Origin: a virus
Lineage: Duplodnaviria > Caudoviricetes
Length of the DNA stretch: 64,000 nt
Virus record (IMG/VR): IMGVR_UViG_3300005683_000068
Coordinates: 10,218-74,217 of that record
Strand: one strand, 5' to 3'
In this document: positions 5,909 through 56,477 of the stretch, piece after piece
Layout: every line of letters begins with the position of its first letter
How positions within the stretch are numbered: position 1 is the stretch's first letter
Program-made: the position numbers and the translations under genes
The notes under the pieces: model-generated
Database searches by the model: none
What the model saw: only the letters and a program-made list of their open reading frames with translations
Told to the model about the DNA's origin: nothing

Positions 5909-6187
5909 TCACCATTGCAAATCTTGGGTTGCTATTCGCAAAACATCATCAAGACTTGCTTTTGATAGCTTTGTAAATGAATCCAACCCAGAGCGTTTCA
6001 AACATTCCATTGCAATCTCTGCATCCTTAAATCGAGCAAATCTCAAATCAATAATCGAATGCCATTGATGACTTGTTCTGGTGTTTCGTTTGAAATGGGC
6101 TTCTATGTAATAACCAGGACCATTAGATTTCACAATTTTGATGCCGTGTTTTTTATCAACTTTCTCATGGTACTTTACTCGCAGCAT
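5909..6187 (-). CDS. Hypothetical protein (92 aa)
   Basis: AAGGAG RBS before ATG 6187 (MLRVKY...). Confidence 0.6.
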   Translation of the reverse strand: MLRVKYHEKVDKKHGIKIVKSNGPGYYIEAHFKRNTRTSHQWHSIIDLRFARFKDAEIAMECLKRSGLDSFTKLSKASLDDVLRIATQDLQW

Positions 6188-6485
6188 CTTCTTCTCCTTG
6201 CGGCTTCCTAATCCCTTTACGAATCTCATCTACTTGATCCGTAATCCTAAAATTGTATTGGATTATATGATTCTGATTCTCCAATATCTTTGATTGTCTA
6301 TCAATCACAAGCCACATCCCAATACAAACTAGGAGAATAATAATGATGAGGAATATACCCAACATCACTATGATTAGATGCACAAAGTAAGCAAGCCAAT
6401 CAGACACTTTGTACTGCCTGAAATAATTGAGAAACTTGTCTTCTTCAAGAATCGCTTCCGTCATCACTATCGGTTCGTCTTTCAT
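6165..6485 (-). CDS. Single-pass membrane protein (holin/spanin-like)
   Basis: Long hydrophobic stretch 'WLAYFVHLIIVMLGIFLIIIILLVCIGMWLVI'; start uncertain. Confidence 0.5.
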   Translation of the reverse strand: MKDEPIVMTEAILEEDKFLNYFRQYKVSDWLAYFVHLIIVMLGIFLIIIILLVCIGMWLVIDRQSKILENQNHIIQYNFRITDQVDEIRKGIRKPQGEEDAASKVP

Positions 6486-6888
6486 TTTGACCACCAAAGA
6501 TTGTTGTAGCTGCTTTGATATTCAACAATACCTCCTCTTTTACTCCGAGTCTTTTTCGTGTCTCTATATCAGTAAGATGCAGCTCAACAGCCCTTAAGGC
6601 ATACGCTGTTCCAGTCCTAGCTCTCCTTGTATCAGAATGCAGTCTCTGCAAAGACTCATTAAGTGTGTCCAGTAGCTTTCCTTCATTCTCAAGGTATTTA
6701 CATACCTTGTCATGGCTATCTATACTTTTTTGAAACCAAACAGGTATCCACTTCTTAAACAAACTCACCAAAACAAAAGCGACCCAAATCCACAACAGTA
6801 AAAAAGAGGTAAGAAATACAACGGCTATTCCATAGCTCGCTGTGAATTGAAGAATCCTGTCTAACGAATCTATAGGCACGTCTTGCAC
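6445..6888 (-). CDS. Membrane protein, holin-like
   Basis: N-terminal TM helix 'YGIAVVFLTSFLLLWIWVAFVLV' followed by a charged coiled-coil. Confidence 0.55.
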   Translation of the reverse strand: MQDVPIDSLDRILQFTASYGIAVVFLTSFLLLWIWVAFVLVSLFKKWIPVWFQKSIDSHDKVCKYLENEGKLLDTLNESLQRLHSDTRRARTGTAYALRAVELHLTDIETRKRLGVKEEVLLNIKAATTIFGGQNERRTDSDDGSDS

Positions 6889-6901
6889 GATTTTATCCTA
6901 T

Positions 6902-7195
6902 CTAAGGGGACCTATCAGCAACCGCAGGAAACTTACGCTGGTCATCTCTAATAGCTTTCAGCAAATCAGTCTGCTTTGACTGCTCTTGTGTTTGTTTGGT
7001 TACATCAAAGGCAATGGATTTCATTACCTCTTGCTCTGCCTCTAGGAATTTAATGTGCTGAGTCACCAAAGGTGAGAAGATATGATCGGCTGTCCAGCTT
7101 CCAGTCTTGTAAATAGCCAGACACAAAATCAAAACAAACATCGTAGGAATGCCTAGCTTCTCAGCAACCCATTTCCAATTCTCTGCACTAAACAT
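6902..7195 (-). CDS. Membrane protein, holin-like
   Basis: 'EKLGIPTMFVLILC' TM segment followed by a coiled-coil, a pattern common in small phage holins. Confidence 0.55.
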   Translation of the reverse strand: MFSAENWKWVAEKLGIPTMFVLILCLAIYKTGSWTADHIFSPLVTQHIKFLEAEQEVMKSIAFDVTKQTQEQSKQTDLLKAIRDDQRKFPAVADRSP

Positions 7196-7218
7196 AAAAA
7201 GGACCCTTGTGTAAAGAA

Positions 7219-7268
7219 CTCCTAGACTACGCCACAGAGCGAAGAATCCGTTAAACGTAGTCTAGGAG
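7219..7268. promoter_or_regulatory. 13 bp inverted repeat (CTCCTAGACTACG / CGTAGTCTAGGAG) in the intergenic gap
   Basis: Perfect stem at 7219-7231 and 7256-7268. Confidence 0.7.
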
Positions 7269-7283
7269 GGCATTCAAAACGAT

Positions 7284-7634
7284 TTAATCATCCTTTCGGT
7301 ATTTCCTTTGTTTCCTACGGACAAACATCAAAGCAGCATCCTCAACCGAATTAGGATTATAGGCTTTGAAGTCTCCGCTATGTCCTATGTTTAGATGACA
7401 GTTGCGACTAGGATACTCGCATAGTGTTTGGAAGTTGGTTTCATCTAGTTCCAATTCGGGAAATAGGTGAAACGGCTTTTTGTGATGAACCCTTACGTAC
7501 CTCTTATCCGTTTCGCCGCAAGCCTCGCAAGCCGGGTGAAGAACAAGGTATCGGTTTCTAGCTTCCTCCCAATCGGGGGAACGACCTTCCAGATTGGGAT
7601 AGACAAACCAAGTAAATAACCTAAGTAAGTTCAT
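7284..7634 (-). CDS. HNH endonuclease
   Basis: CxxC, 'VHHKKPFH...N...LC...CHLNIGH' HNH signature. Confidence 0.85.
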
Positions 7635-7848
7635 CGCAATGACACCAATCGGTAGCCAGCATATCTGTCTGGCTTGCTAACCACGGGACTAGATCGCCCT
7701 GAGCGGTTTTCATGTAGATATACGGTAGCGTCATCTTGGAATGGGAGTCCGGTATTTGTAGCTCCAAGTACATACCCTTTCCATTCCATCCGGTACGCCA
7801 GACCCTACCCCCTCTCTTCAAATGCTCTAGGGCTTGACCAAAGTTCAT
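7621..7848 (-). CDS. tad2: DUF2829 / Tad2-like (Thoeris anti-defence 2) sponge protein
   Basis: '[25 protein letters not shown]...[15 protein letters not shown]' closely matches the DUF2829 consensus; start reassigned to ATG 7848. Confidence 0.8.
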
Positions 7849-7849
7849 C

Positions 7850-8188
7850 TTAGCGTCTCCTATTTCTGGGAAGGATCGCAAACCGGCGTCCTCCACGAAA
7901 CACCCCGCTACGATACTGCTGAGGAGCTTGAGCCGGCATTGCACAACTACCACTCGAACATCCTCCTTGAAAGGTTGTAGAAACGAACTGCGGGGATTCC
8001 TCAGCAGTCTTAACCGGTTCCTCCTTAACTGGTTCGGGCTTCGCTATAGGCAATGTCTGTTCTATCTCCGGTACTGGCGTAAGTATCGGAGTTGAAGGAG
8101 AGGCTACCGCCTTCGGTTCCAGCGTAGTATCGCTTAGTACAAGCAAGCCCAAAGCAATCGGAATACAATACAGCATGTCTTTTATCAT
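7850..8188 (-). CDS. Exported Pro-rich protein with a GGCSSGSC motif
   Basis: Hydrophobic N-terminus, Pro/Glu linker, Cys pair and Arg-rich tail. Confidence 0.55.
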
Positions 8189-8197
8189 GACCCACTC

Positions 8198-9028
8198 CTA
8201 GATAGACACTGAGTATGCCGTCATTTGCATTAGAGCAAAGCCACTAGACGGCGTGTAGCGGCCTTCCCTACCTACGGCGAACCCTCCAAATCCTAGTTCG
8301 TTTTTAGCCCCCCAACCATCTGACCAAGAATTACGAAGTCTAGGTCCGAATGAGTTTGCTTCAATCTCTACCGGATCAGCAAGATAAACTACGTGACGCC
8401 ACCAGTTGTAGGCTACCGGACACGGAAAGCCTAGTAGCAACATAGTGAAGAATTCATCGAAGTCTCCTAAGTCAACCCACTTCGTACACTTATAATTCTC
8501 GGCATCCTGTCGGTTAGCGTCATTGTCATACTGACGATTGAGGGAATTCTCTGGCCACTTATCAACTGTCGTAGCCCCGCGAGACCGCAAGACTTCTAAG
8601 GCTTCTCCTTCCCAACCGCCTCTAGACCTAAATCCAGAAGCAATACAACCTACACTGGCTGCGGATAGTTGCTTGAACGGATGCCCTTGCTTACGTCGGA
8701 AGTTAGCCGCCGCTTGGGTAGGCCCAAAGCACCAACAGTAAGGTAATCCATTCTGGTCATACGCTTTGAAATCGCAGTAATCAGAGCAGCGGGCTTTCTT
8801 CTCCTCTAGCTCTTTAATACGTGCGGACCATTCATGTCGGGGTATCTTTTTAATTCCCGACTGGGCAAATGAAATAGCATAGCCCGTAGTTACGGCATCA
8901 ATAGGTCTCGGAATAGCCGAGAGCAATCTACCCTCACCACCGGCTATTACTTGATTACCGTCACCGATCAGACTCTTGTAGTTTGAGTCATCCCAAACCA
9001 CTTCGCCTCGGTAGAGTTGACTTGGCAT
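8198..9028 (-). CDS. Papain-like (C1) cysteine peptidase
   Basis: Catalytic motifs 'DQNGLPYCW', 'WRHVVYL' and 'RNSWSDGWG'. Confidence 0.85.
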   Translation of the reverse strand: MPSQLYRGEVVWDDSNYKSLIGDGNQVIAGGEGRLLSAIPRPIDAVTTGYAISFAQSGIKKIPRHEWSARIKELEEKKARCSDYCDFKAYDQNGLPYCWCFGPTQAAANFRRKQGHPFKQLSAASVGCIASGFRSRGGWEGEALEVLRSRGATTVDKWPENSLNRQYDNDANRQDAENYKCTKWVDLGDFDEFFTMLLLGFPCPVAYNWWRHVVYLADPVEIEANSFGPRLRNSWSDGWGAKNELGFGGFAVGREGRYTPSSGFALMQMTAYSVSI

Positions 9029-9029
9029 A

Positions 9030-9458
9030 TCACTTTCCTAGGGGCTTAAGAACTTTTAGAGTTTCGACAGTGTCTTTTGGAAGGGGTTGAACTACGCCCC
9101 TGGTAGGATTAGCCGCTGCCAAGATAGGCGGTTGGACATTCTTATCCTTAGCTACTTGCCAAGCATCCTGTACCCATTGTAAATCGCGGGTAGGCTTCTC
9201 GCTATTATCAAGGACTCTCATTTCCCCGCTTTGGGATTTTACCCAATCACGTACAGACCCCGGAGCAGAAGCATCAAGAATAGTCAACTGTTCCTTAGTT
9301 AGCTGTTCCCTACGCAATACGTCTTCAAAGATAGCTACACTCAGCTTATCCGTTTTGAAAGGGGCCGTAATCGGAAAGGGAATTGGACCTTTACCGACTA
9401 GTAGGAACAGACCGCCGCCTACTAGTAGTAACCAAAAGAAGGGAAATGATCGTTTCAC
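9030..9458 (-). CDS. Membrane-anchored/exported hypothetical protein
   Basis: N-terminal hydrophobic helix; GTG start coupled to the upstream gene. Confidence 0.55.
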   Translation of the reverse strand: MKRSFPFFWLLLVGGGLFLLVGKGPIPFPITAPFKTDKLSVAIFEDVLRREQLTKEQLTILDASAPGSVRDWVKSQSGEMRVLDNSEKPTRDLQWVQDAWQVAKDKNVQPPILAAANPTRGVVQPLPKDTVETLKVLKPLGK

Positions 9459-9715
9459 TTCTCATCCCCTTCCGTGTGCCAAAAGTGCTGAAGACACAGA
9501 GTAGAAGCGGCTAGACCTTCCTTACACCCAATCCGCTCAAAACGCTTATGTACACGAGATAGGGCTTGGAAGTCTAACGTATCCTCGTCGGGACTATTCC
9601 CACCTACACTAACCTTGCTTTTGACCCAACCCGCTAAAGAGCCGCCGTAGTGGCTTAGCAAACCAAGACCGCCTACGCCCATCAAAGCATAAGCTAGTAG
9701 ATGCTGTAAGTCCAT
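9455..9715 (-). CDS. Small membrane protein
   Basis: N-terminal TM 'LLAYALMGVGGLGLL'. Confidence 0.55.
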   Translation of the reverse strand: MDLQHLLAYALMGVGGLGLLSHYGGSLAGWVKSKVSVGGNSPDEDTLDFQALSRVHKRFERIGCKEGLAASTLCLQHFWHTEGDEK

Positions 9716-9725
9716 ATCCTATTCC

Positions 9726-10163
9726 TTATTGATTACACAACCAAAGAAGGGTATTCATCCACCAATTATTCCACCCGCTAAGAATGCAGTAGTTGCGATT
9801 GAACTTTCCGTTATGGTGAACAGCATGATGTTTCGGATGAATAATAACTCTGGTTGCTTGAAGTAGTCTTACTACCCTTCCTGATTTGTCGCTATGGTGA
9901 GCTAGGTAATGAGGAACCTGAGCGACGCAACCAAACAAAGACGCAGAGGTCAGAAACAGACTGCGATTCCACGCCCCTAGAACCAGCAGAGGAATAGCTA
10001 CTACCAGAGGTTGCCAATCGAATCCTTCCATCGTATTCGTCCTATGGTGCTCCTCAAACAAGTCAACCTGATGCTGTAAGTTAAACCCCTTATCCGTCAT
10101 TAAGTGGTAGATACCCGTTAAAGCATCTACCACTAGGTAAGCAAATAGAATCTCTATCATCAT
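9726..10163 (-). CDS. CarF/TMEM189(PEDS1)/FAD4-type His-box lipid desaturase domain protein
   Basis: 'DALTGIYH', 'FEEHH', 'HYLAH', 'LQ..VII.PKHHAVHH' and 'NYCILSGWNN' reproduce the TMEM189_B-domain motif order; two hydrophobic segments. Confidence 0.8.
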   Translation of the reverse strand: MMIEILFAYLVVDALTGIYHLMTDKGFNLQHQVDLFEEHHRTNTMEGFDWQPLVVAIPLLVLGAWNRSLFLTSASLFGCVAQVPHYLAHHSDKSGRVVRLLQATRVIIHPKHHAVHHNGKFNRNYCILSGWNNWWMNTLLWLCNQ

Positions 10164-10174
10164 CCTTCGTCCCT

Positions 10175-10504
10175 CTAGGAAGCTGCCAATCGTTCCAAGA
10201 TAGCAGTTACCACGGAAATCAAAATACCGCGAAGGGCCAAAAAAGAAGCTATTGGGCCGAGAGGAAACAATACACCAAAGATACGCACTACTTCTTCTGC
10301 TACTGCCTTACGTTCCTCAGGCGTGTCGATTAGTTCTTTTCCTTGTCCCATAATGACCTTAATCATTGCGGACAGCACGTCTGAAACCTGACCCTCCATT
10401 GGCTTACCTGCCAATGCTGCTTGCTCAGCGGCAACCTCCATTGCTGGAGCTAACGCTGCATTCAATTGTGATGCGTTCAACGGTTCCATTTTCAACTCCT
10501 TCAT
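10175..10504 (-). CDS. Hypothetical protein (109 aa, hydrophobic C-terminus)
   Basis: Clean ORF in operon. Confidence 0.55.
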   Translation of the reverse strand: MKELKMEPLNASQLNAALAPAMEVAAEQAALAGKPMEGQVSDVLSAMIKVIMGQGKELIDTPEERKAVAEEVVRIFGVLFPLGPIASFLALRGILISVVTAILERLAAS

Positions 10505-10550
10505 GAATTAAACAACATTCATTTTACAGTTAGGGGCTTAACAAATTATG

Positions 10551-10892
10551 TTAAGCTCCAAAACAACCATTGCGTCTTTTTAGACGCAAGAATCTTCTCA
10601 ATCTAACTTCGGATCTCGGTGAGTCATCAATCGGAGTTCTAGCTAGAACATGGGACTGTATTTGATTTCTCACCTCCTTTATTCTTTCAGCAATAAGAGT
10701 GTCCATCTCCTTCAACTCTTTTTCTGATCTTGGTTCTACAATAGAACCTATGTTTTGTCCGTTGTTTTGTTTCCTTTCTTCATTTAGTGCAACACGATAA
10801 CTGTTAGCACATTCCACACTGCAAAATCTTCTGTTAAGATACTTATAAAATCTCTCATTGCAGTGTTCGCATCTGCGATAAGATAATTTCAT
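10551..10892 (-). CDS. Zinc-finger protein
   Basis: 'CEHC...RRFCSVEC' treble-clef motif. Confidence 0.6.
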   Translation of the reverse strand: MKLSYRRCEHCNERFYKYLNRRFCSVECANSYRVALNEERKQNNGQNIGSIVEPRSEKELKEMDTLIAERIKEVRNQIQSHVLARTPIDDSPRSEVRLRRFLRLKRRNGCFGA

Positions 10893-10898
10893 TTTCCC

Positions 10899-11237
10899 TT
10901 AGTCCTCTTTACGTGGCACAATAGCTACACAATCACGTCCAGACATACACAAATAGCTCTTGCCTTTCAAAACTACTTTGAAAGGTGCTCGCATTCCCAT
11001 AAAGAATACCATGTCCCCTACCTTTATTGGATTAGGAACAAATGTTCCACTATCACGATAAGCACCAGGACCAGACTTCACCACAACACCTTTCTGAGTA
11101 TCATCTACTCCTACCTTGATGTTATCTGGTAAAGCTACGCCTCCTCTCGTCTTAGTTTGAATAATAGGATCAATCAAAATGTAATCCCACAACGGCTCAA
11201 ACTCTTCATAACCAACTTCTGTCTTTCCGTTTTCCAT
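10899..11237 (-). CDS. groES: Co-chaperonin GroES (Cpn10)
   Basis: 'PLWDYILI...TRGGVALPD...GVVVKSGPG...IKVGDMV'; RBS GAGGAG before ATG 11237. Confidence 0.9.
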   Translation of the reverse strand: MENGKTEVGYEEFEPLWDYILIDPIIQTKTRGGVALPDNIKVGVDDTQKGVVVKSGPGAYRDSGTFVPNPIKVGDMVFFMGMRAPFKVVLKGKSYLCMSGRDCVAIVPRKED

Positions 11238-11263
11238 TTCACAACTCCTCAGGTAAATAGAAA

Positions 11264-12916
11264 TCAAACCCAACCACCCATAAACTCTTTGCCAAATGAG
11301 CGTTTGAATTGTCTCTCAGTGTTCTCATCTTCTTCATCACGAATTGTTTGTAATGGATCAAATGGCAATGTAATGCTGCCACCAGTGAAACCACCACACA
11401 CAATAGCAGCATAGGATGCCATATCTATCTGATCATTGGTCTCATCCTTCAATCCCATCCAACGCAACCATTCTGATTCAAGATCAAATCTCCATGTTCC
11501 TTCGTGCTTTGGTAAATAAACTTGTCCTGCTTCAAGCATATTAGTAAAGGGGGCGGCCCTCACCACCTTATCAACAATGCCGGATGAGATCATTTGAATC
11601 GGCATCTTGCGTTTGAGATCATCCACTACTGCTGGACCCATAGCTTTGTTTTCAACGTGGGTCATGCTTGGCTTCCAAATATAATGAATGTTCTCTATTG
11701 CATCTCTGATTGCTGTATAACCCACTCCCTGCAATCTAAGAACGTGTTTCGCTATTAGTGCTCTGAAATTACCAGAGATGTAATAATCCCAAACACCAAT
11801 AGCAGTGTGGCTAAGTGATTTGCCTCTGTGCTCACGTTCTATATCTTCAACACCACCAGCAGTATCCACTGTCACAAACCGCCTTGCTTCCTGCTCATTA
11901 AATGAAAGCAAAACCTCTGCTGTATGAAGAATGTTTCCGTCACCGTCATTACGTGAGATCAACAGATTTACCATTCGATCCTGCATCACATAATAACGCA
12001 ACCATTCTGGCTTAATCAAACCAGTTGGCATAATTGTCCAGTCGCCATTCATCAAGCGTTCTCTGATGACTGGCGAAAGATGCATCAGATTCCTGATATA
12101 ATCATCCGGATCAACAGCAGGATTGTCTCTAATTTTGGATGGCACAAATACACGTTTAGAGCCATCGTGGGTGCATTCAGTTTCATATATATCTCCAATG
12201 TTGCCAGTCTTTAGATCATTCTCAGCTTGCTTGGAGATGAATCTTGACTTAACCCAATCATGTCCTTTACCACCAGGGTTAGTAGCTGACCTCATTCGAT
12301 AAGGAGCATCAATGCTAGTCTTTTTACGAAGACGCGAGAACAGGAACAAATAATCCTCTTCAGTGAATTCTGTCAGCTCATCAAAGCCAATGAACTGATA
12401 TTCAGACGAACCATAACGATACTTGTCAAATTCACTAGAGATGTACCCAAATTGAAGTGTGGCACCAGATTTGAATGACCACATAAAATTGCTGCCATTC
12501 CATTTACATTCACCTCTAGCAGCAGCGGGAGCCAGCCATTCATGGGACCTAGGGATCAAACCACCGGCTAGGCGTAATCGCTGCAAATCTGTTCTAACAA
12601 TCAACGCCGAATAGCCAGGTACATGGGCATACTGTAATGCTGCTCGCAATAGACTATCACTCTTACCCCCACCAGCAGCACCACCAAACAACACCTCAAG
12701 ATTAGGTAGTTTTAGAAAAACATCTTGTTTATGCCAATGTGGATACTTACACCACTTGCTCACAGGATCCTTCGAGTATAATTCCAACTTTCTCAGATTC
12801 CCTAACAGCTTCGGCAACTGAGATTTCTCTACCGTCGATAATAAGTTTTTCTGCTCCGAGGACTTCAGCGAGTTGAAGTATTGATAATGTTCTAGACTGA
12901 GAATTTCCTTTGTCAT
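11264..12916 (-). CDS. terL: Terminase large subunit
   Basis: Walker A 'FGGAAGGGKS', Walker B 'IGFDELTEF', 'SATNPGG', nuclease 'TVDTAG' and 'DQIDMAS'. Confidence 0.92.
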   Translation of the reverse strand: MTKEILSLEHYQYFNSLKSSEQKNLLSTVEKSQLPKLLGNLRKLELYSKDPVSKWCKYPHWHKQDVFLKLPNLEVLFGGAAGGGKSDSLLRAALQYAHVPGYSALIVRTDLQRLRLAGGLIPRSHEWLAPAAARGECKWNGSNFMWSFKSGATLQFGYISSEFDKYRYGSSEYQFIGFDELTEFTEEDYLFLFSRLRKKTSIDAPYRMRSATNPGGKGHDWVKSRFISKQAENDLKTGNIGDIYETECTHDGSKRVFVPSKIRDNPAVDPDDYIRNLMHLSPVIRERLMNGDWTIMPTGLIKPEWLRYYVMQDRMVNLLISRNDGDGNILHTAEVLLSFNEQEARRFVTVDTAGGVEDIEREHRGKSLSHTAIGVWDYYISGNFRALIAKHVLRLQGVGYTAIRDAIENIHYIWKPSMTHVENKAMGPAVVDDLKRKMPIQMISSGIVDKVVRAAPFTNMLEAGQVYLPKHEGTWRFDLESEWLRWMGLKDETNDQIDMASYAAIVCGGFTGGSITLPFDPLQTIRDEEDENTERQFKRSFGKEFMGGWV

Positions 12917-13373
12917 TCATCACCCCTACTTGCTGATTGATATTCACGGTGTTTTTCTCACGGGCTTCCTCTGCCCAGCGTTTCTTCCATCTAATTTTCA
13001 ACTTCCATGCCGCAGCACGCCAATCAGCATCAGCAGCATCATCTACACGCTGGACATCAGCCGCTTCGCCTTCAGCTAATGCCTGGATTACTTGCTTATA
13101 GCACTGAAGGTATAGTTTCTGGTCTGAATTCTTTATGACCAATTCAGGATCGGCTTCTACTAGTTTTGATAAAGCCTTACCTTGTTTCATCCATTGACCT
13201 ATGGTATTTGCATGGACTCCTAATGCTCTAGCAGCAACAGAAATCCAGCAGCCTGCTCTAAGCAGGCTGCATAGTTGATCAAGTCTCTCTGGTGTTAGAG
13301 CAGACTTTGGCCCAGGTTTAGTCCGCTTGATAGCAGACCTATCTCGTTTCACTCTTTCTTTTTCCTTGGGCAT
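12747..13373 (-). CDS. Terminase small subunit-like HTH protein
   Basis: 'PGPKSALTPE...AARALGV...TIGQW' HTH and 'DWRAAAWKL..RW' motif; directly upstream of terL. Confidence 0.65.
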   Translation of the reverse strand: MPKEKERVKRDRSAIKRTKPGPKSALTPERLDQLCSLLRAGCWISVAARALGVHANTIGQWMKQGKALSKLVEADPELVIKNSDQKLYLQCYKQVIQALAEGEAADVQRVDDAADADWRAAAWKLKIRWKKRWAEEAREKNTVNINQQVGVMNDKGNSQSRTLSILQLAEVLGAEKLIIDGREISVAEAVRESEKVGIILEGSCEQVV

Positions 13374-13400
13374 CTTTGTTCGCCTTTCAATTAGTTACTA

Positions 13401-13541
13401 CTACTTCTTCTTCTTCTTTTTAAGAATGGCTTTCTTTCCACCACCCTTTTTTGAAGCAACCTTCTTCCTGCCACCGCCACCTTTCTTACCACTAGTGTTG
13501 GCAGTACCACGAACAGGAAACGAATGTGAACCACGCATCAT
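13401..13541 (-). CDS. 46 aa Lys/Gly-rich basic micro-protein (absent from ORF track)
   Basis: AAGGAGG RBS, then MMRGSHSFPVRGTANTSGKKGGGGRKKVASKKGGGKKAILKKKKKK, ending TAG TAG TAA. Confidence 0.75.
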   Translation of the reverse strand: MMRGSHSFPVRGTANTSGKKGGGGRKKVASKKGGGKKAILKKKKKK

Positions 13542-13543
13542 GA

Positions 13544-13966
13544 CTAATCCTCCTTAGGGATTAAAGGGGTTAATGCCGAATCAGATCGGCGTGCTTTCAA
13601 CGTGAATTGTTCTTTAGGTAATTTGATACCTAATTTTTCAGCGAGTCCAATTCCATCCACAAAGGTATTTGTCTTATCCATAAAATCATGCCACTCTGAC
13701 TCTCTAACAAACGCCCTGGCTTGATTCCCGCTGGCAAATACCATTACTACATAGTAATCACAGTCCTTAGCCGCCTTCACGGCAGCCGTTGCTTGTTTCA
13801 TCATCTTGGCTATTTCAGAAACCTCTCTAGCATCATCCTTCTCTATACTCCCCGAAGTTTCTTTGCTGTGTATTGGATGGTCCTTGATTTTAGGACCTTT
13901 GAATTTTGGAGCAAGACGTAACTTAGTCTCGCGGCTGTTTAATTTTAATCTGCCCATGCTTAACAC
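13544..13966 (-). CDS. Conserved partner of the phage PAPS-reductase-like protein
   Basis: 'DYYVVMVF....ARAF...F.DG..LAEKLGI.LP' resembles proteins found beside such PP-loop genes. Confidence 0.55.
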   Translation of the reverse strand: MLSMGRLKLNSRETKLRLAPKFKGPKIKDHPIHSKETSGSIEKDDAREVSEIAKMMKQATAAVKAAKDCDYYVVMVFASGNQARAFVRESEWHDFMDKTNTFVDGIGLAEKLGIKLPKEQFTLKARRSDSALTPLIPKED

Positions 13967-18712: not shown

Positions 18713-18900
18713 TGCTTCTCACTTTCTAAACCAGAAGCAGCTCTATCATCATCCAATGTCAATTCCGTTCTCCTGATCAAAACATCTTTTGGAGCCTCTA
18801 TAGCTAATGAAACCCTGTGTCCATCAATTTTCGTTACTCGCACCACAATACCACCACCAATCACAATACTCTCACCAACCCGACGCGATAGCACTAGCAT
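18709..18900 (-). CDS. csrA: Carbon storage regulator CsrA
   Basis: 'MLVLSRRVGESIVIG...VSLAIEAPKDVLIRRTEL' is the canonical CsrA pattern. Confidence 0.92.
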   Translation of the reverse strand: MLVLSRRVGESIVIGGGIVVRVTKIDGHRVSLAIEAPKDVLIRRTELTLDDDRAASGLESEKH

Positions 18901-20213
18901 TGAAATTCCTTTCTTAAAGCAGATTCAATGTCACTAAACACCTGACCCCAACACCCTCGATAACGCTGTCTGAACAGCCTCATTGAGGGATACCACGGTG
19001 AATCATGTCTATCGAGCAACCACCTCCAATTTGCTACATAAGGTAAACACACCCAAACAGGAACACCCATCGCACCAGCCAAATGAGCGATTGAAGTGTC
19101 ATTAGTAATAACTAAATCCATGCTCATCATTACAGCAGCCGTATCCATAAACGACTGAGCATCATACTCTTTCAACTCTGCTGAAGGATTGATCATTCCA
19201 TTTTGGAGTATGTCTTTCTGTAAATTAACAAGCACAAAAGGACTAACTCCAGGAGTGCCTACTAAGGGCTGAAACAACTCAACTGGTATATCTCTAGCAG
19301 CCATCATACCAGTATAAATCTTGATTCCAGGATATGCCTGTGGGGCCTCACCTCCCCTTCCCTTCCAATTAACTCCAATCTTGATCTTGTTTAATCCTTG
19401 AAAGTAGTCCTTCCAGTAATCAACCAGTTCTGGATTAGCTTTAATATAACCAACCTCCCCAGGAATATCCTCAACATACTGAGTTAATATGCCAGGAATA
19501 GACATTAAAGGAATCTGATAATCAAACTCAGGAAGAACATCATCATAAGTAAACAGATCAATAAAAGTCTCTGACAGCAAAGACACAAGCTGCTTCTGTA
19601 CCTCACTTATAACCTTAAAGCCACATTCATTCTCCAGCATCCTTACATATCTAATAAACTGCATTGTGTCGCCCAATCCTTGTTCAGCATGAACAAGGAT
19701 TGTTTTCCCTTCTCCTGATTCTCCCCACCATCTAGGTTTATTGTATCTCGGATCAACTGCCTTCATGCCTACCGGAGGCCGTGCTTCATAATAAGCAAAG
19801 CCAGTCTCAAAATCACCAAGATGAAGCCTCAATTCCCCAAGGTTATAGAACAACAGCAAATGATTAGGGTCAATCTTAATACCCTTCTCATAACAATCCT
19901 CGGCAAGTTCATACTGCCCCCATTCATAAAAGTTGCGGCCACGGTTGCACCAAAAATGAGGATTGTTAGGTTCCAAATCACAAGCCTTTTTGTAAGACTC
20001 GTCTGATTCCTCAAATTTATCTTGGAGATGCAAACAAAAACCAAGATTGTAAAACAACACACCTGATTCAGGATCACAATCAATTGCTTGTCTTAATAAA
20101 GTCTCAGCCCTTACCAAATTATTAGACTTCATGTGACGCAGGGCTCTGTCACAATGATAAGCAGCAACTTTCCTACGCTCTATTCTTGTCATTTGATCCT
20201 CTTCTTCTTTCAC
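18894..20213 (-). CDS. TPR-repeat glycosyltransferase (GT-B, GT9-like)
   Basis: N-terminal TPRs, 'AEQGLGDTMQF', 'DLVITNDTSIAHLAGAMG', 'SPWYPSMRLFRQ'. Confidence 0.85.
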   Translation of the reverse strand: MKEEEDQMTRIERRKVAAYHCDRALRHMKSNNLVRAETLLRQAIDCDPESGVLFYNLGFCLHLQDKFEESDESYKKACDLEPNNPHFWCNRGRNFYEWGQYELAEDCYEKGIKIDPNHLLLFYNLGELRLHLGDFETGFAYYEARPPVGMKAVDPRYNKPRWWGESGEGKTILVHAEQGLGDTMQFIRYVRMLENECGFKVISEVQKQLVSLLSETFIDLFTYDDVLPEFDYQIPLMSIPGILTQYVEDIPGEVGYIKANPELVDYWKDYFQGLNKIKIGVNWKGRGGEAPQAYPGIKIYTGMMAARDIPVELFQPLVGTPGVSPFVLVNLQKDILQNGMINPSAELKEYDAQSFMDTAAVMMSMDLVITNDTSIAHLAGAMGVPVWVCLPYVANWRWLLDRHDSPWYPSMRLFRQRYRGCWGQVFSDIESALRKEFQC

Positions 20214-46854: not shown

Positions 46855-46894
46855 TGTCTAAGCTCCTTTCGCGAATTGAAACAAAAAACACAAT

Positions 46895-46968
46895 AGGGAC
46901 CGGTAGGGCTTGAACCTACAACCAAAGGATTATTAGTCCTCTGCTCTAACCAATTGAGCTACGGTCCC
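46895..46968 (-). tRNA. tRNA with AAU anticodon (nominally Ile), no encoded CCA
   Basis: Full cloverleaf GGGACCG...CGGTCCC, D-loop GG, anticodon arm GAGGA-CT[AAT]AA-TCCTT, T-loop TTCAAGC. Confidence 0.9.
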
Positions 46969-47015
46969 TAGAGGTCAGTCCAGTTCAACCGTGGCCAGCG
47001 GTATCATTTTCGGTT

Positions 47016-53996: not shown

Positions 53997-56477
53997 TCAC
54001 GGTTCCCACGGAGCGACATGATGCCGACCAGTACAAGGATCACGCCAAGTAGAGCACAATTTATCTGCTTCACATTCATCCCCATCAGCAATGGCTTGAA
54101 ATGTCCTACCTGGCACACCTCCATAAACAATCGTTACCTGACCAGCACTTCCTTTTTCAATGGTTGAGGTGGGCTTAACAATGAAACCGCGTTCCTGATT
54201 TGGCACTTGCTCAACAATCCATTCCTCTTGTTCTTCATCCCAAAACAAGATCAAATCATCCCCACTTGTGCATCTCCAGCCATAACTATTTAGAGCTTCT
54301 GTTGGAACAGGATCAGGAGGTAGGCTAAATGGGGAGAAGTTTATTGGCTTAAAATTCTCAATAGGCTCATATTGAATGTCCCCTGACATGAACCCATCTT
54401 GGCCAGTGGAAGAAAATCTAGCTGTAGCACGGAAACACATTTGCTGGCATTCAATAATCTCATACCGATTAGCCTTATCATTCCAAATCGCCCGTCCCTT
54501 GGCACCTTTGGGGATTCTTGGAAACCTGAAAGACTCATCGTACACTTTGACAGTCGGACTGCCATTCCCTTGTATCCTTAGATCGCCTTGTTGAAACTGA
54601 TTGTCAATCTGAACGAAGAAATCAGGATCGCCTTTGTCTCTATTTGATGTAGTAGTGAATTCTATAATGAGAGCATTTCTTTGCATCTCAATAATTTCGT
54701 ACTTCCCATCAGGTCTGATCGAAGCAATACCAAGAGCACCAATAGGACCAGACCAACGGCCAAACACTGAAGATAATCCGTCAACTACTACTATACTCTC
54801 GCCTCCAGTATCATCGTAGGCATTAGCAACTAATCTACAAGTCTTCGCATTAGCAGAAGCATTCACACCCATAGACAGAGCTTCTTGCAACTTGAAAACG
54901 ACTATTTTATTATCAACTGCTCCTGATCTCACTGTGTACACAGGTAGCAAAAATTCTTCCTGTTCATCATCAAAAATAAATGTTCCCGGACTGGAACCAC
55001 ACAGCCTAGCAGGACCATAATACTCATCCTGCTTGGCCTTAACATCTCCCTTCTTATTATCGAAATTATCCAGAAACAAAATCCAGCAGGTGTCATATTT
55101 TTCTACCTGCTGATTATTCCATCTCACTACTCTACCTAAGTGATATTTTACTCCTGAAGATTGGGTTCCTTGTGCATCAGGGCTTACCTCACTTCCAACT
55201 TCCCCTTGGTCATGATGTACTTGCACCATGTTCACAATTCTTGGCCAAACAGGATAAGAATTTCTGTTTATGTCCATTGGCTTCCATGCCTCACACTCAA
55301 CATAACTCTGAGAGTCTCGTTGATAGGACTTTAGCAAGTTGGGTCCAACAAAATACTCAGTAACAATACCACCAAGCACATTAGAACCAGCATCATCCAA
55401 ATTACGCCAAACAACACCCTTAATAAATGGTCCAGGCAGTATATCAGTAACAAATCCTACTAATACCTTATGTTGTTTATCAATGTTCCAACGTGTTTTG
55501 TATCTCTGAAGTCTGTTTTGGTCTCTCTGATCTAATTCCTGTTGATTTGTAACTCCTCCAGTATCATTCAAAATCTTTGGCAAATCATCCCACAAAGCAA
55601 CAGTTCCTCTAGCTCCACTTACTCCTGTAGGAAGCAATGTAGGATTGGTAAAGGATGTAGCCCAATTGCTATTAAATTCTGTATCCTTCTCCTGTCCTAT
55701 TGGATGAAATACTGGATGATAGATTTTAAGATTTGCAGCGACATTGTTGGCTTGGCTGGTTACTGTTTCTCCATCCCACTGAAGAATAGGATCGTTCGGG
55801 AAATCAGAATCACCTTCATCACTTCCTAATTGAACTATCTCATAGCTGTCGTTAAACGGATTATGACGAATTGCACAGTCCAATACATCTAACACAGTAT
55901 TAAGCGTCTGATAGGCATTGTTGCCAATGAATAGCAAATCATTGGCAACACCATCTATAGGCAATTCTGATGGTAGTCCTGGGTATTCTCCCAGAAACAA
56001 ACAAGCATTCCATACCTGCTCAAGAAAATCATCCCAATCATTGAGACTAGTCCCGTCAAGAAAATCACTACCCTTGTCGCTTCTGCGGGGTCTTAGTCTT
56101 ATATTGGAACGAATATCTCCAGTTTCAGAATGATTAGCAGCTAAATTTCTGCTATCTCTAAACTCAACTAAGAACAAAGCATTTGGATCTCCTACTCCTC
56201 CCAAAGAAACCCTCTCGGCATTTACTAACCACAAGCCCTTAAATCTACAAGTAGTTATGTCTCCACCTGGGATTTTCTTTTGAGAGAAGGTGATTGTGTG
56301 TTGTTTGTTGGAATCTAAACTCCTAACATCTCTTCCAACCAAAAGAATATAGGCTGTTGTTGGAGCCGGTCCCAATGGACAAAACACACTATTAGCCTTG
56401 CCCCAAGCAACAGAACCTTTGGGAACAGAAGCAATAGCAGTATATCCATCAACAGAAACATAAGAAGAAATTTGCAT
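53997..56477 (-). CDS. Large putative tail/baseplate protein (826 aa)
   Basis: Long ORF within the structural module; no catalytic motif recognised. Confidence 0.55.
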   Translation of the reverse strand: MQISSYVSVDGYTAIASVPKGSVAWGKANSVFCPLGPAPTTAYILLVGRDVRSLDSNKQHTITFSQKKIPGGDITTCRFKGLWLVNAERVSLGGVGDPNALFLVEFRDSRNLAANHSETGDIRSNIRLRPRRSDKGSDFLDGTSLNDWDDFLEQVWNACLFLGEYPGLPSELPIDGVANDLLFIGNNAYQTLNTVLDVLDCAIRHNPFNDSYEIVQLGSDEGDSDFPNDPILQWDGETVTSQANNVAANLKIYHPVFHPIGQEKDTEFNSNWATSFTNPTLLPTGVSGARGTVALWDDLPKILNDTGGVTNQQELDQRDQNRLQRYKTRWNIDKQHKVLVGFVTDILPGPFIKGVVWRNLDDAGSNVLGGIVTEYFVGPNLLKSYQRDSQSYVECEAWKPMDINRNSYPVWPRIVNMVQVHHDQGEVGSEVSPDAQGTQSSGVKYHLGRVVRWNNQQVEKYDTCWILFLDNFDNKKGDVKAKQDEYYGPARLCGSSPGTFIFDDEQEEFLLPVYTVRSGAVDNKIVVFKLQEALSMGVNASANAKTCRLVANAYDDTGGESIVVVDGLSSVFGRWSGPIGALGIASIRPDGKYEIIEMQRNALIIEFTTTSNRDKGDPDFFVQIDNQFQQGDLRIQGNGSPTVKVYDESFRFPRIPKGAKGRAIWNDKANRYEIIECQQMCFRATARFSSTGQDGFMSGDIQYEPIENFKPINFSPFSLPPDPVPTEALNSYGWRCTSGDDLILFWDEEQEEWIVEQVPNQERGFIVKPTSTIEKGSAGQVTIVYGGVPGRTFQAIADGDECEADKLCSTWRDPCTGRHHVAPWEP

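Follow-up and report, generated by a model that had tools for sequence, protein, structure and literature searches.

A minimal PF10520 lipid desaturase homologue encoded by a tailed phage and recurrently associated with a papain-like peptidase

Our study reports on a 145-residue membrane protein encoded by a tailed phage, which is a genuine member of the PF10520 family of lipid desaturases. The protein carries the intact catalytic residue set of the family on a truncated architecture, it belongs to a phage-borne clade of similarly short proteins, and its gene lies in a neighbourhood that recurs in other phage-like loci. The best explanation for these observations, and one that we consider likely, is that it is an active O2-dependent di-iron desaturase built on a three-helix core, which modifies a host lipid and is linked to late infection or lysis; its activity, its electron donor, its substrate and its benefit to the phage we infer from the sequence and those of its relatives. 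At 145 residues, against the 270–320 residues of PEDS1, CarF and FAD4, it is about half of the usual length for the family, as a preliminary description of this DNA had stated.

The window, the whole stretch of 64,000 nucleotides that was analysed, comprises bases 10218–74217 of a 74,217-bp IMG/VR virus record, which CheckV rates as 100% complete. Other genes on the record encode Mu-F-like, SNF2 helicase, PolA, clamp loader, RecA-like and gp32-like proteins and a 5'-3' exonuclease; the terminase is homologous to phage terminases, and GroES-like, Tad2-like and HNH genes are found around the desaturase. The complete record, the phage terminase and these phage-like neighbours bear out the initial view that the protein is phage-encoded. 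The desaturase open reading frame lies at 9726–10163 on the minus strand, starts with ATG and, in the list of open reading frames, has the same orientation as all of its neighbours. An 11-nt gap (10164–10174, minus strand) with a GAAGG Shine-Dalgarno-like motif separates its start codon from the stop codon of the preceding co-oriented gene, and the desaturase is likely to be coupled to this upstream gene in an operon-like manner. Promoter-like or terminator-like signals showed no excess over shuffled sequences in the region 6000–13600.

The open reading frame and its hydropathy agree with the membrane protein that had been described at this position. In Pfam, the protein matches PF10520 (Lipid_desat) with 57.6 bits (E = 2.2e-15, cut-off 26.4) over profile positions 1–153 of 175, and a six-frame search of the genome with PF10520 also scored above the cut-off; the profile search thus upholds the family assignment of the preliminary description. 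A weak secondary match to FA_hydroxylase (E = 3e-4) falls below its Pfam cut-off, and PHROGs contains no family that matches the desaturase. The Pfam match, the invariant residues, the AlphaFold2 model and the fold match described below together identify the gene at 9726–10163 (minus strand) as that of a minimal PF10520 membrane di-iron lipid desaturase homologue.

A word-indexed protein search returned 19 relatives of 145–202 residues, all with PF10520, which share 45–74% identity with the phage protein; their full-length matches at E values of 1e-33 to 1e-71 place the similarity far beyond chance. Longer relatives, whether fused or full-length, were absent at E ≤ 0.001 from this word-indexed search, a weak test for them. 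When 1.84 billion cluster representatives were searched exhaustively with phmmer, 384 proteins reached E ≤ 0.001, and the top-ranked among them are 140–160 residues long. The histidines of the phage protein are found at positions 20, 31, 39, 40, 85, 89, 90, 109, 112, 113, 116 and 117, and the histidine-box series reads H20 / H39-H40 / H85-x3-H89 / H113-x2-H116-H117. This series and the YCILSGWNN motif at residues 125–133 correspond to the histidine boxes and the YC(I/L)xxGWxN motif recognised at the outset; the HHxxHH box given there is literally present (H112, H113, H116 and H117), but H112 is not conserved in the relatives.

In an alignment of 40 full-length relatives, taken by rank with the motif ignored, residues D13, H20, D24, G26, F36, H39, H40, H85, H89, H113, H116 and H117 show no variation, even in relatives with only about 31% identity. 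All eight of the histidines that are essential across the family (H20, H39, H40, H85, H89, H113, H116 and H117) are therefore kept, together with the aspartate D24 and the phenylalanine F36. The short-clade rows of the tree discussed below were pre-filtered by histidine pattern, and the case for histidine conservation rests on this unfiltered alignment and on the sequences that the filter rejected; F36, which lay outside the filter, is present in 62 of the 62 short-clade rows. The rejected sequences are fragments or long forms with other loop lengths, with the exception of P0041, the sole relative of full-length size without one of the ligands. It has Asn in place of H20 and a garbled C-terminus, and is a degenerate copy. 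The metagenomic protein P0046, of 682 residues, contains two PF10520-like cores (residues ~55–167 and ~518–665) and further histidine-box motifs (HxxHH) in its middle region; it resembles a natural tandem or fused desaturase.

The retained residues can be read against mutational data for a characterised homologue. In mouse PEDS1 the residues H96, H121, H122, H187, H191, H215, H218 and H219 are essential (Werner et al., PMC8960569); D100 is absolutely essential, and the F118 mutant keeps 6% of activity (PMC8960569). Phage residues H20, D24, F36, H39, H40, H85, H89, H113, H116 and H117 align with H96, D100, F118, H121, H122, H187, H191, H215, H218 and H219 of PEDS1, respectively, and the spacing within the boxes is identical (H-x3-D, F-x2-HH, H-x3-H, 24 residues, and then H-x2-HH). 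The catalytic residues also align column for column with those of the long-form relatives. [quoted passage not shown]

Where the phage protein differs from these enzymes is in its length, ~145 residues against 270–280, and in the absence of the first helix and the N-terminal region. [quoted passage not shown] The N-terminal ~75 residues and the first transmembrane helix of PEDS1 are thus missing, and because its start maps just after PEDS1 residues 1–73 the phage protein corresponds to the three-helix catalytic core; a three-helix homology model of PEDS1 left out the N-terminal region with the first helix (PMC8960569). Four transmembrane helices have been shown experimentally in CarF (PMC9131029), but hydropathy and the AlphaFold2 model place only three hydrophobic helices in the phage protein, at residues 2–24, 51–65 and 69–89. 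In addition to lacking the first transmembrane helix that all characterised members have, it has a helical hairpin from the HH box to the HxxxH box that is shorter by ~20 residues.

An AlphaFold2 model built with the alignment of the relatives has a pLDDT of 96.3, a pTM of 0.89 and eight helices. An exhaustive search with VIA-align ranked the di-iron hydroxylase domain of Scs7p at the top (Z 7.4, below 8 for a helical protein; rmsd 3.8 Å over 129 residues), followed by an unrelated match at Z 4.5, with SCD1 at Z 3.7; the model is consistent with the membrane di-iron fold, although a match of this strength is not conclusive taken alone. A Foldseek search of the PDB with the model gave nothing significant, a profile search of PDB sequences found no solved relative, and no PF10520 structure exists. 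In BFVD, a protein of a giant virus annotated as 'Lipid desaturase domain' matches best (TM 0.79). Scs7p (PDB 4ZR0/4ZR1) and SCD1 (4YMK) appear to have in common with the phage protein the membrane di-iron histidine-cluster fold, but they share ~12% identity with it, have four transmembrane helices and another histidine-box pattern, and carry out different chemistry; full-length Scs7p, unlike the phage protein, also has a fused cytochrome b5 domain.

A quick maximum-likelihood tree (LG+G4) was built from 145 sequences with the full histidine pattern, drawn from the top 150 hits to this query; its clades were identified by motif, the named CarF, PEDS1 and FAD4 references not being among its rows. 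The phage desaturase falls in a 62-row clade of short proteins of about 140–165 residues (SH-aLRT 95) with a median length of 154.5 residues and 18–30 residues before the first histidine. Sequences with a histidine at position +9 ('ITRHDF', the CarF/PEDS1 signature) form a separate clade of 51 rows (SH-aLRT 97), and six 'PWTIT..R' sequences of 278–391 residues form a clade of their own (SH-aLRT 96), apart from the short clade. The 'PWTIT..R' motif is the plant FAD4 signature, in which Arg takes the place of the ninth histidine (PMC9131029), and it is from this motif that we infer the FAD4 identity of the clade. The plant-like Arg clade and the short clade lie on opposite sides of the central split of the tree, which has a weak support of 45.

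The catalytic set departs from that of CarF and PEDS1 at the ninth histidine. Relative to the long forms, the phage desaturase and its nearest relatives carry two 6-residue deletions; one of these gaps removes the ninth-histidine segment 'RHDFIE', and position +9 after the HH box is occupied by D49. The ninth histidine (CarF H113, PEDS1 H131) is required for the function of CarF and human PEDS1 in M. xanthus (PMC9131029), and about 7% of activity is left in mouse PEDS1 without it (PMC8960569, PMC9131029). A comparison of catalytic histidines with CarF, as envisaged in the preliminary description, thus finds eight of them kept but the ninth, CarF H113, deleted. The NCBIfam equivalog model for CarF (NF045946) gives 40.5 bits against a cut-off of 500 and matches only residues 55–136. 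Taken together, the equivalog score, the deletion of the ninth histidine and the placement in the tree identify the protein as a PF10520 member that is neither a CarF/PEDS1 orthologue nor a plant-type FAD4. The separate, phage-carried clade, the two deletions and the failed equivalog cut-off set it apart from PEDS1 and CarF, and the clade is best regarded as a distinct, mostly phage-carried branch of PF10520. A literature search on PF10520, CarF or TMEM189 with phage or virus found nothing relevant, and a recent (2026) phylogeny of the PF10520 family mentions no viral members (PMC13012113). We found no paper that describes the short phage-borne clade, nor any characterised phage member, in line with what had been said of this protein initially.

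The distribution of the short form is predominantly viral. Pattern scans detected close copies on eight further IMG/VR contigs and a distant copy (25% identity) in one giant-virus MAG; this survey and the phylogeny, both foreseen in the preliminary description, thus place the protein in a supported short clade with close copies on other viral contigs. A scan of one genome per species, covering 185,579 species, found one close copy only, on a 4.3-kb contig binned in a Nitrosotalea MAG, and the remaining matches, from Acidobacteriota, Burkholderiales, Oligoflexus and Oceanobacter, were distantly related long forms. On the Nitrosotalea MAG contig (JBGPGB010000179.1, locus L011) small unannotated ORFs surround the short desaturase; the contig is either of viral origin and wrongly binned, or it hints at members carried by archaeal viruses. 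Every sampled genomic context of the short clade is phage-like. The six clade members examined on metagenome contigs all have short ORFs with no annotation around them, and three of these contexts say more: P0060 is surrounded by genes for a split multisubunit RNA polymerase, a phage portal is encoded near P0045, and a GpA terminase near P0003. The nearest ESM Atlas clusters, of 69 to 216 members, are labelled 'Viruses' for 50–91% of their content, mostly Uroviricota. Among the 50,697 deposited phage genomes of INPHARED there is a single distant match, in the 595-kb uncultured phage LR756511 (29% identity).

After the terminase, the order of transcription runs through genes for a GroES-like, a zinc-ribbon and a 109-residue protein, the desaturase, proteins of 86, 142, 276 and 112 residues, a Tad2-like protein and an HNH endonuclease. 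The 109-residue protein directly upstream of the desaturase (10175–10504, minus strand) has a hydrophobic C-terminus, no homologue in the related loci and no Pfam or PHROG family. Directly downstream, an 86-residue small membrane protein (9455–9715, minus strand), with no Pfam or PHROG match, has homologues beside the desaturase in loci L005 and L006, as does the following 142-residue protein (9030–9458, minus strand), which has an N-terminal membrane anchor; in loci L002, L007 and L023 a different anchored protein of ~130 residues takes the place of the latter before the peptidase.

The peptidase in question is the 276-residue protein (8198–9028, minus strand), a divergent papain-like (C1) cysteine peptidase with no signal peptide, as judged by alignment, jackhmmer and Foldseek. 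Its catalytic set in the alignment consists of Gln92, Cys98 in 'CW.F', His212 and the Asn of NSW..GWG. Jackhmmer links it to desaturase neighbours in L005, L006, L007 (two copies) and L009, and via L007 to those in L002 and L023. The copy in L009 passes the Pfam cut-off for Peptidase_C1 with 42.8 bits and matches PHROG 16701 'peptidase'. The AlphaFold2 model of the 276-residue protein is of low confidence (pLDDT 56.6), and its top Foldseek matches are all cathepsins at E values of about 1e-4. The copies are found at 7084–7983 in L002, 4020–5030 in L005, 6754–7641 in L006, 1692–2558 and 4686–5486 in L007, 7222–7989 in L009 and 545–1444 in L023. In 7 of the 15 loci examined, the desaturase thus has a papain-like peptidase next to it; the gene order differs between loci, and a small membrane-anchored protein usually comes before the peptidase. 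The association is not obligate, no papain-like peptidase being present in the whole records of L003, L004 and L008. The genome of LR756511.1 holds its distant desaturase homologue at 54630–55031 and a close homologue of the L009-type C1 peptidase (52% identity) at 449274–450014, ~395 kb apart, so that co-occurrence of the two needs no adjacency.

Downstream of the peptidase lies the gene for the 112-residue protein (7850–8188, minus strand), which has an N-terminal hydrophobic segment, a Pro-rich middle and an Arg-rich end, with no Pfam or PHROG match. The Tad2-like (anti-Thoeris) protein at 7621–7953 (minus strand) matches PF11195 with 94.8 bits; its gene, the second one after that of the peptidase (about 250 bp further downstream), overlaps that of the HNH endonuclease (7284–7634). 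Searches of the complete genome with Phage_lysozyme, Amidase_2, SLT and Peptidase_M15_4 found no match to any of these four families, and the scanned ORFs of the genome gave no match to a Pfam wall-hydrolase family. As these four common endolysin domains are absent from the genome, the papain-like peptidase may be the lysin; a relative of the peptidase in the Alicyclobacillus phage MMB025 was named 'endolysin' by its depositors. The lysis-like cassette of the preliminary description is thus real as a neighbourhood of small membrane proteins and a peptidase, and a lysis-linked role for this neighbourhood is plausible; roles in exclusion or signalling, likewise suggested there, are conjectural.

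The most concrete alternative reading of the substrate is a FAD4-like reaction, a delta-3-trans desaturation of the sn-2 acyl chain of phosphatidylglycerol (PG), which we consider unlikely. With FAD4, the 16:1 delta-3-trans PG desaturase of plant and algal chloroplasts, the phage protein shares PF10520, the eight-histidine set and the absence of the ninth histidine of PEDS1 and CarF; the substrate PG is a lipid that bacteria also have, and it is present in nearly all of them. The 'RPWTMT' that follows the HH box in L007 and L009 resembles the plant-type 'SPWTIT', and the relative P0018 was named palmitoyl-[glycerolipid] 3-(E)-desaturase by JGI, an automatic name only. Against this, the plant-like Arg sequences form a separate clade (SH-aLRT 96) across the central split (45), the phage protein has lost the segment in which FAD4 has its Arg, and sequence cannot reveal regiospecificity. 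FAD4 also differs in its length of about 300 residues or more, its transit peptide and its extra N-terminal region. Peroxiredoxin Q is mentioned in the literature together with plant FAD4, of which it may be a required partner, and no counterpart to it was seen at the phage locus. The plasmalogen or vinyl-ether lipids raised in the preliminary description would call for a true plasmanylethanolamine delta-1' desaturase, and we regard this as very improbable. Such an enzyme depends on alkyl-ether lipid precursors, and few aerobic bacteria produce these. The family and the set of eight histidines, Asp and Phe common to CarF and PEDS1 speak for such an enzyme, as does the fact that the CarF model is the only specific NCBIfam match, but that match reaches 40.5 of the 500 bits of the equivalog cut-off, the essential ninth histidine (PMC9131029) belongs to a deleted 6-residue segment, and the desaturase stands outside the 51-row 'His at +9' clade. 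The suggestion of plasmalogen synthesis is thus not supported.

That the protein is instead a di-iron hydroxylase or oxidase, which acts on a hopanoid, a carotenoid, a quinone or a lipid A acyl chain and is not a glycerolipid desaturase, appears improbable to us. The sub-threshold FA_hydroxylase match (E = 3e-4), one nearby ESM Atlas cluster annotated as FA_hydroxylase, and the hydroxylase Scs7p as the best solved-structure match all point that way, and few residues switch between the desaturase and hydroxylase outcomes in this superfamily. Both the layout of the histidine boxes and the top-scoring profile nevertheless correspond to PF10520, in which every characterised member (CarF, PEDS1 and FAD4) is a desaturase, and Scs7p simply belongs to the small number of superfamily folds that have been solved, none of them from PF10520. 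Least credible of all is the reading that the protein merely descends from a desaturase and acts in the membrane without catalysis, for example as a holin-like or exclusion factor: the protein is small, has three hydrophobic segments and is encoded among holin-like small membrane proteins, but none of the ten catalytic or metal-site residues varies among relatives with as little as about 31% identity, which would be unexpected without selection for catalysis.

Our analysis therefore favours an active desaturase with a host membrane lipid as its substrate, on the assumption that the minimal form is catalytically competent, and suggests the following model for its activity. During infection, the enzyme would enter the host cytoplasmic membrane with its histidine cluster towards the cytoplasm and would draw its electrons from a host donor, which we propose because no electron donor (ferredoxin, cytochrome b5 or flavodoxin) was seen fused or adjacent to the desaturase. 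It would then put a double bond, or less likely a hydroxyl group, into a lipid of the host membrane, probably an ordinary glycerophospholipid rather than plasmanyl-ethanolamine; with the ninth histidine for plasmalogen synthesis missing, it is probably another host membrane lipid that is altered. The desaturase would be co-transcribed with the small membrane proteins and the papain-like peptidase, and as this cluster recurs beside the desaturase in unrelated phages the lipid change most likely serves envelope remodelling tied to late infection or lysis. The requirement of a desaturase for O2 and reducing power would place its action before lysis and not during it. In a more far-reaching version, which we think quite unlikely, the desaturase, the peptidase and the small membrane proteins would make up a new phage envelope-disruption module, in which lipid oxidation primes membrane failure and the protease replaces the endolysin. 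Head-group-proximal or trans double bonds would prepare or time the failure of the membrane, and the cysteine protease would act in place of a classical muralytic endolysin, maybe for hosts with protein-rich envelopes.

A functional precedent for such an enzyme is the cyanophage desaturase vFAD, likewise a phage-encoded membrane desaturase that alters host lipids in infection, which we take to belong to the classical PF00487 family and not to PF10520. It is a delta-9 lipid desaturase, found in cyanomyoviruses only, with demonstrated activity (Roitman et al. 2018, PMC5776448). vFAD is also full-length. The characterised PF10520 enzymes are all cellular and of about 270–320 residues, and a natural version of 145 residues defines a minimal catalytic core, which could be a tractable target for the structure and mechanism of the plasmalogen-desaturase family. 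What is added here is a complete phage genome with an intact minimal desaturase and its recurrent linkage to a papain-like peptidase. This points to a widespread and unstudied chemical editing of host membranes by tailed phages, distinct from that by the cyanophage delta-9 desaturases, and the repeated linkage of the desaturase to the peptidase, with no classical endolysin found, raises the testable idea that lipid modification and cell lysis are connected.

The phage belongs to a very divergent lineage, given its distant terminase and the lack of any match in cultured phages for its capsid candidate (1427–2566) and an 826-residue protein (53997–56477). Among deposited phages, the large terminase (11264–12916, minus strand) is most similar to those of archaeal viruses, the Methanobacterium viruses psiM2 (33% identity) and PhiF3 (45% over half of its length). 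An archaeal host, to which these matches and the Nitrosotalea contig might point, is considered less probable because of the GroES-like protein, the Tad2-like anti-Thoeris protein, a weak, below-cut-off match to the bacterial beta-clamp and the Shine-Dalgarno motifs; in the ESM Atlas, the GroES-like gene has viral neighbours. Weak similarity to glycosyltransferase family 9 (heptosyltransferase), scored below the Pfam cut-off, in the C-terminal part of a TPR-repeat protein (18894–20213, minus strand) may hint at a Gram-negative, LPS-bearing host. ARAGORN also detects a tRNA-Ile with the unusual anticodon AAU at 46894–46969 (minus strand).
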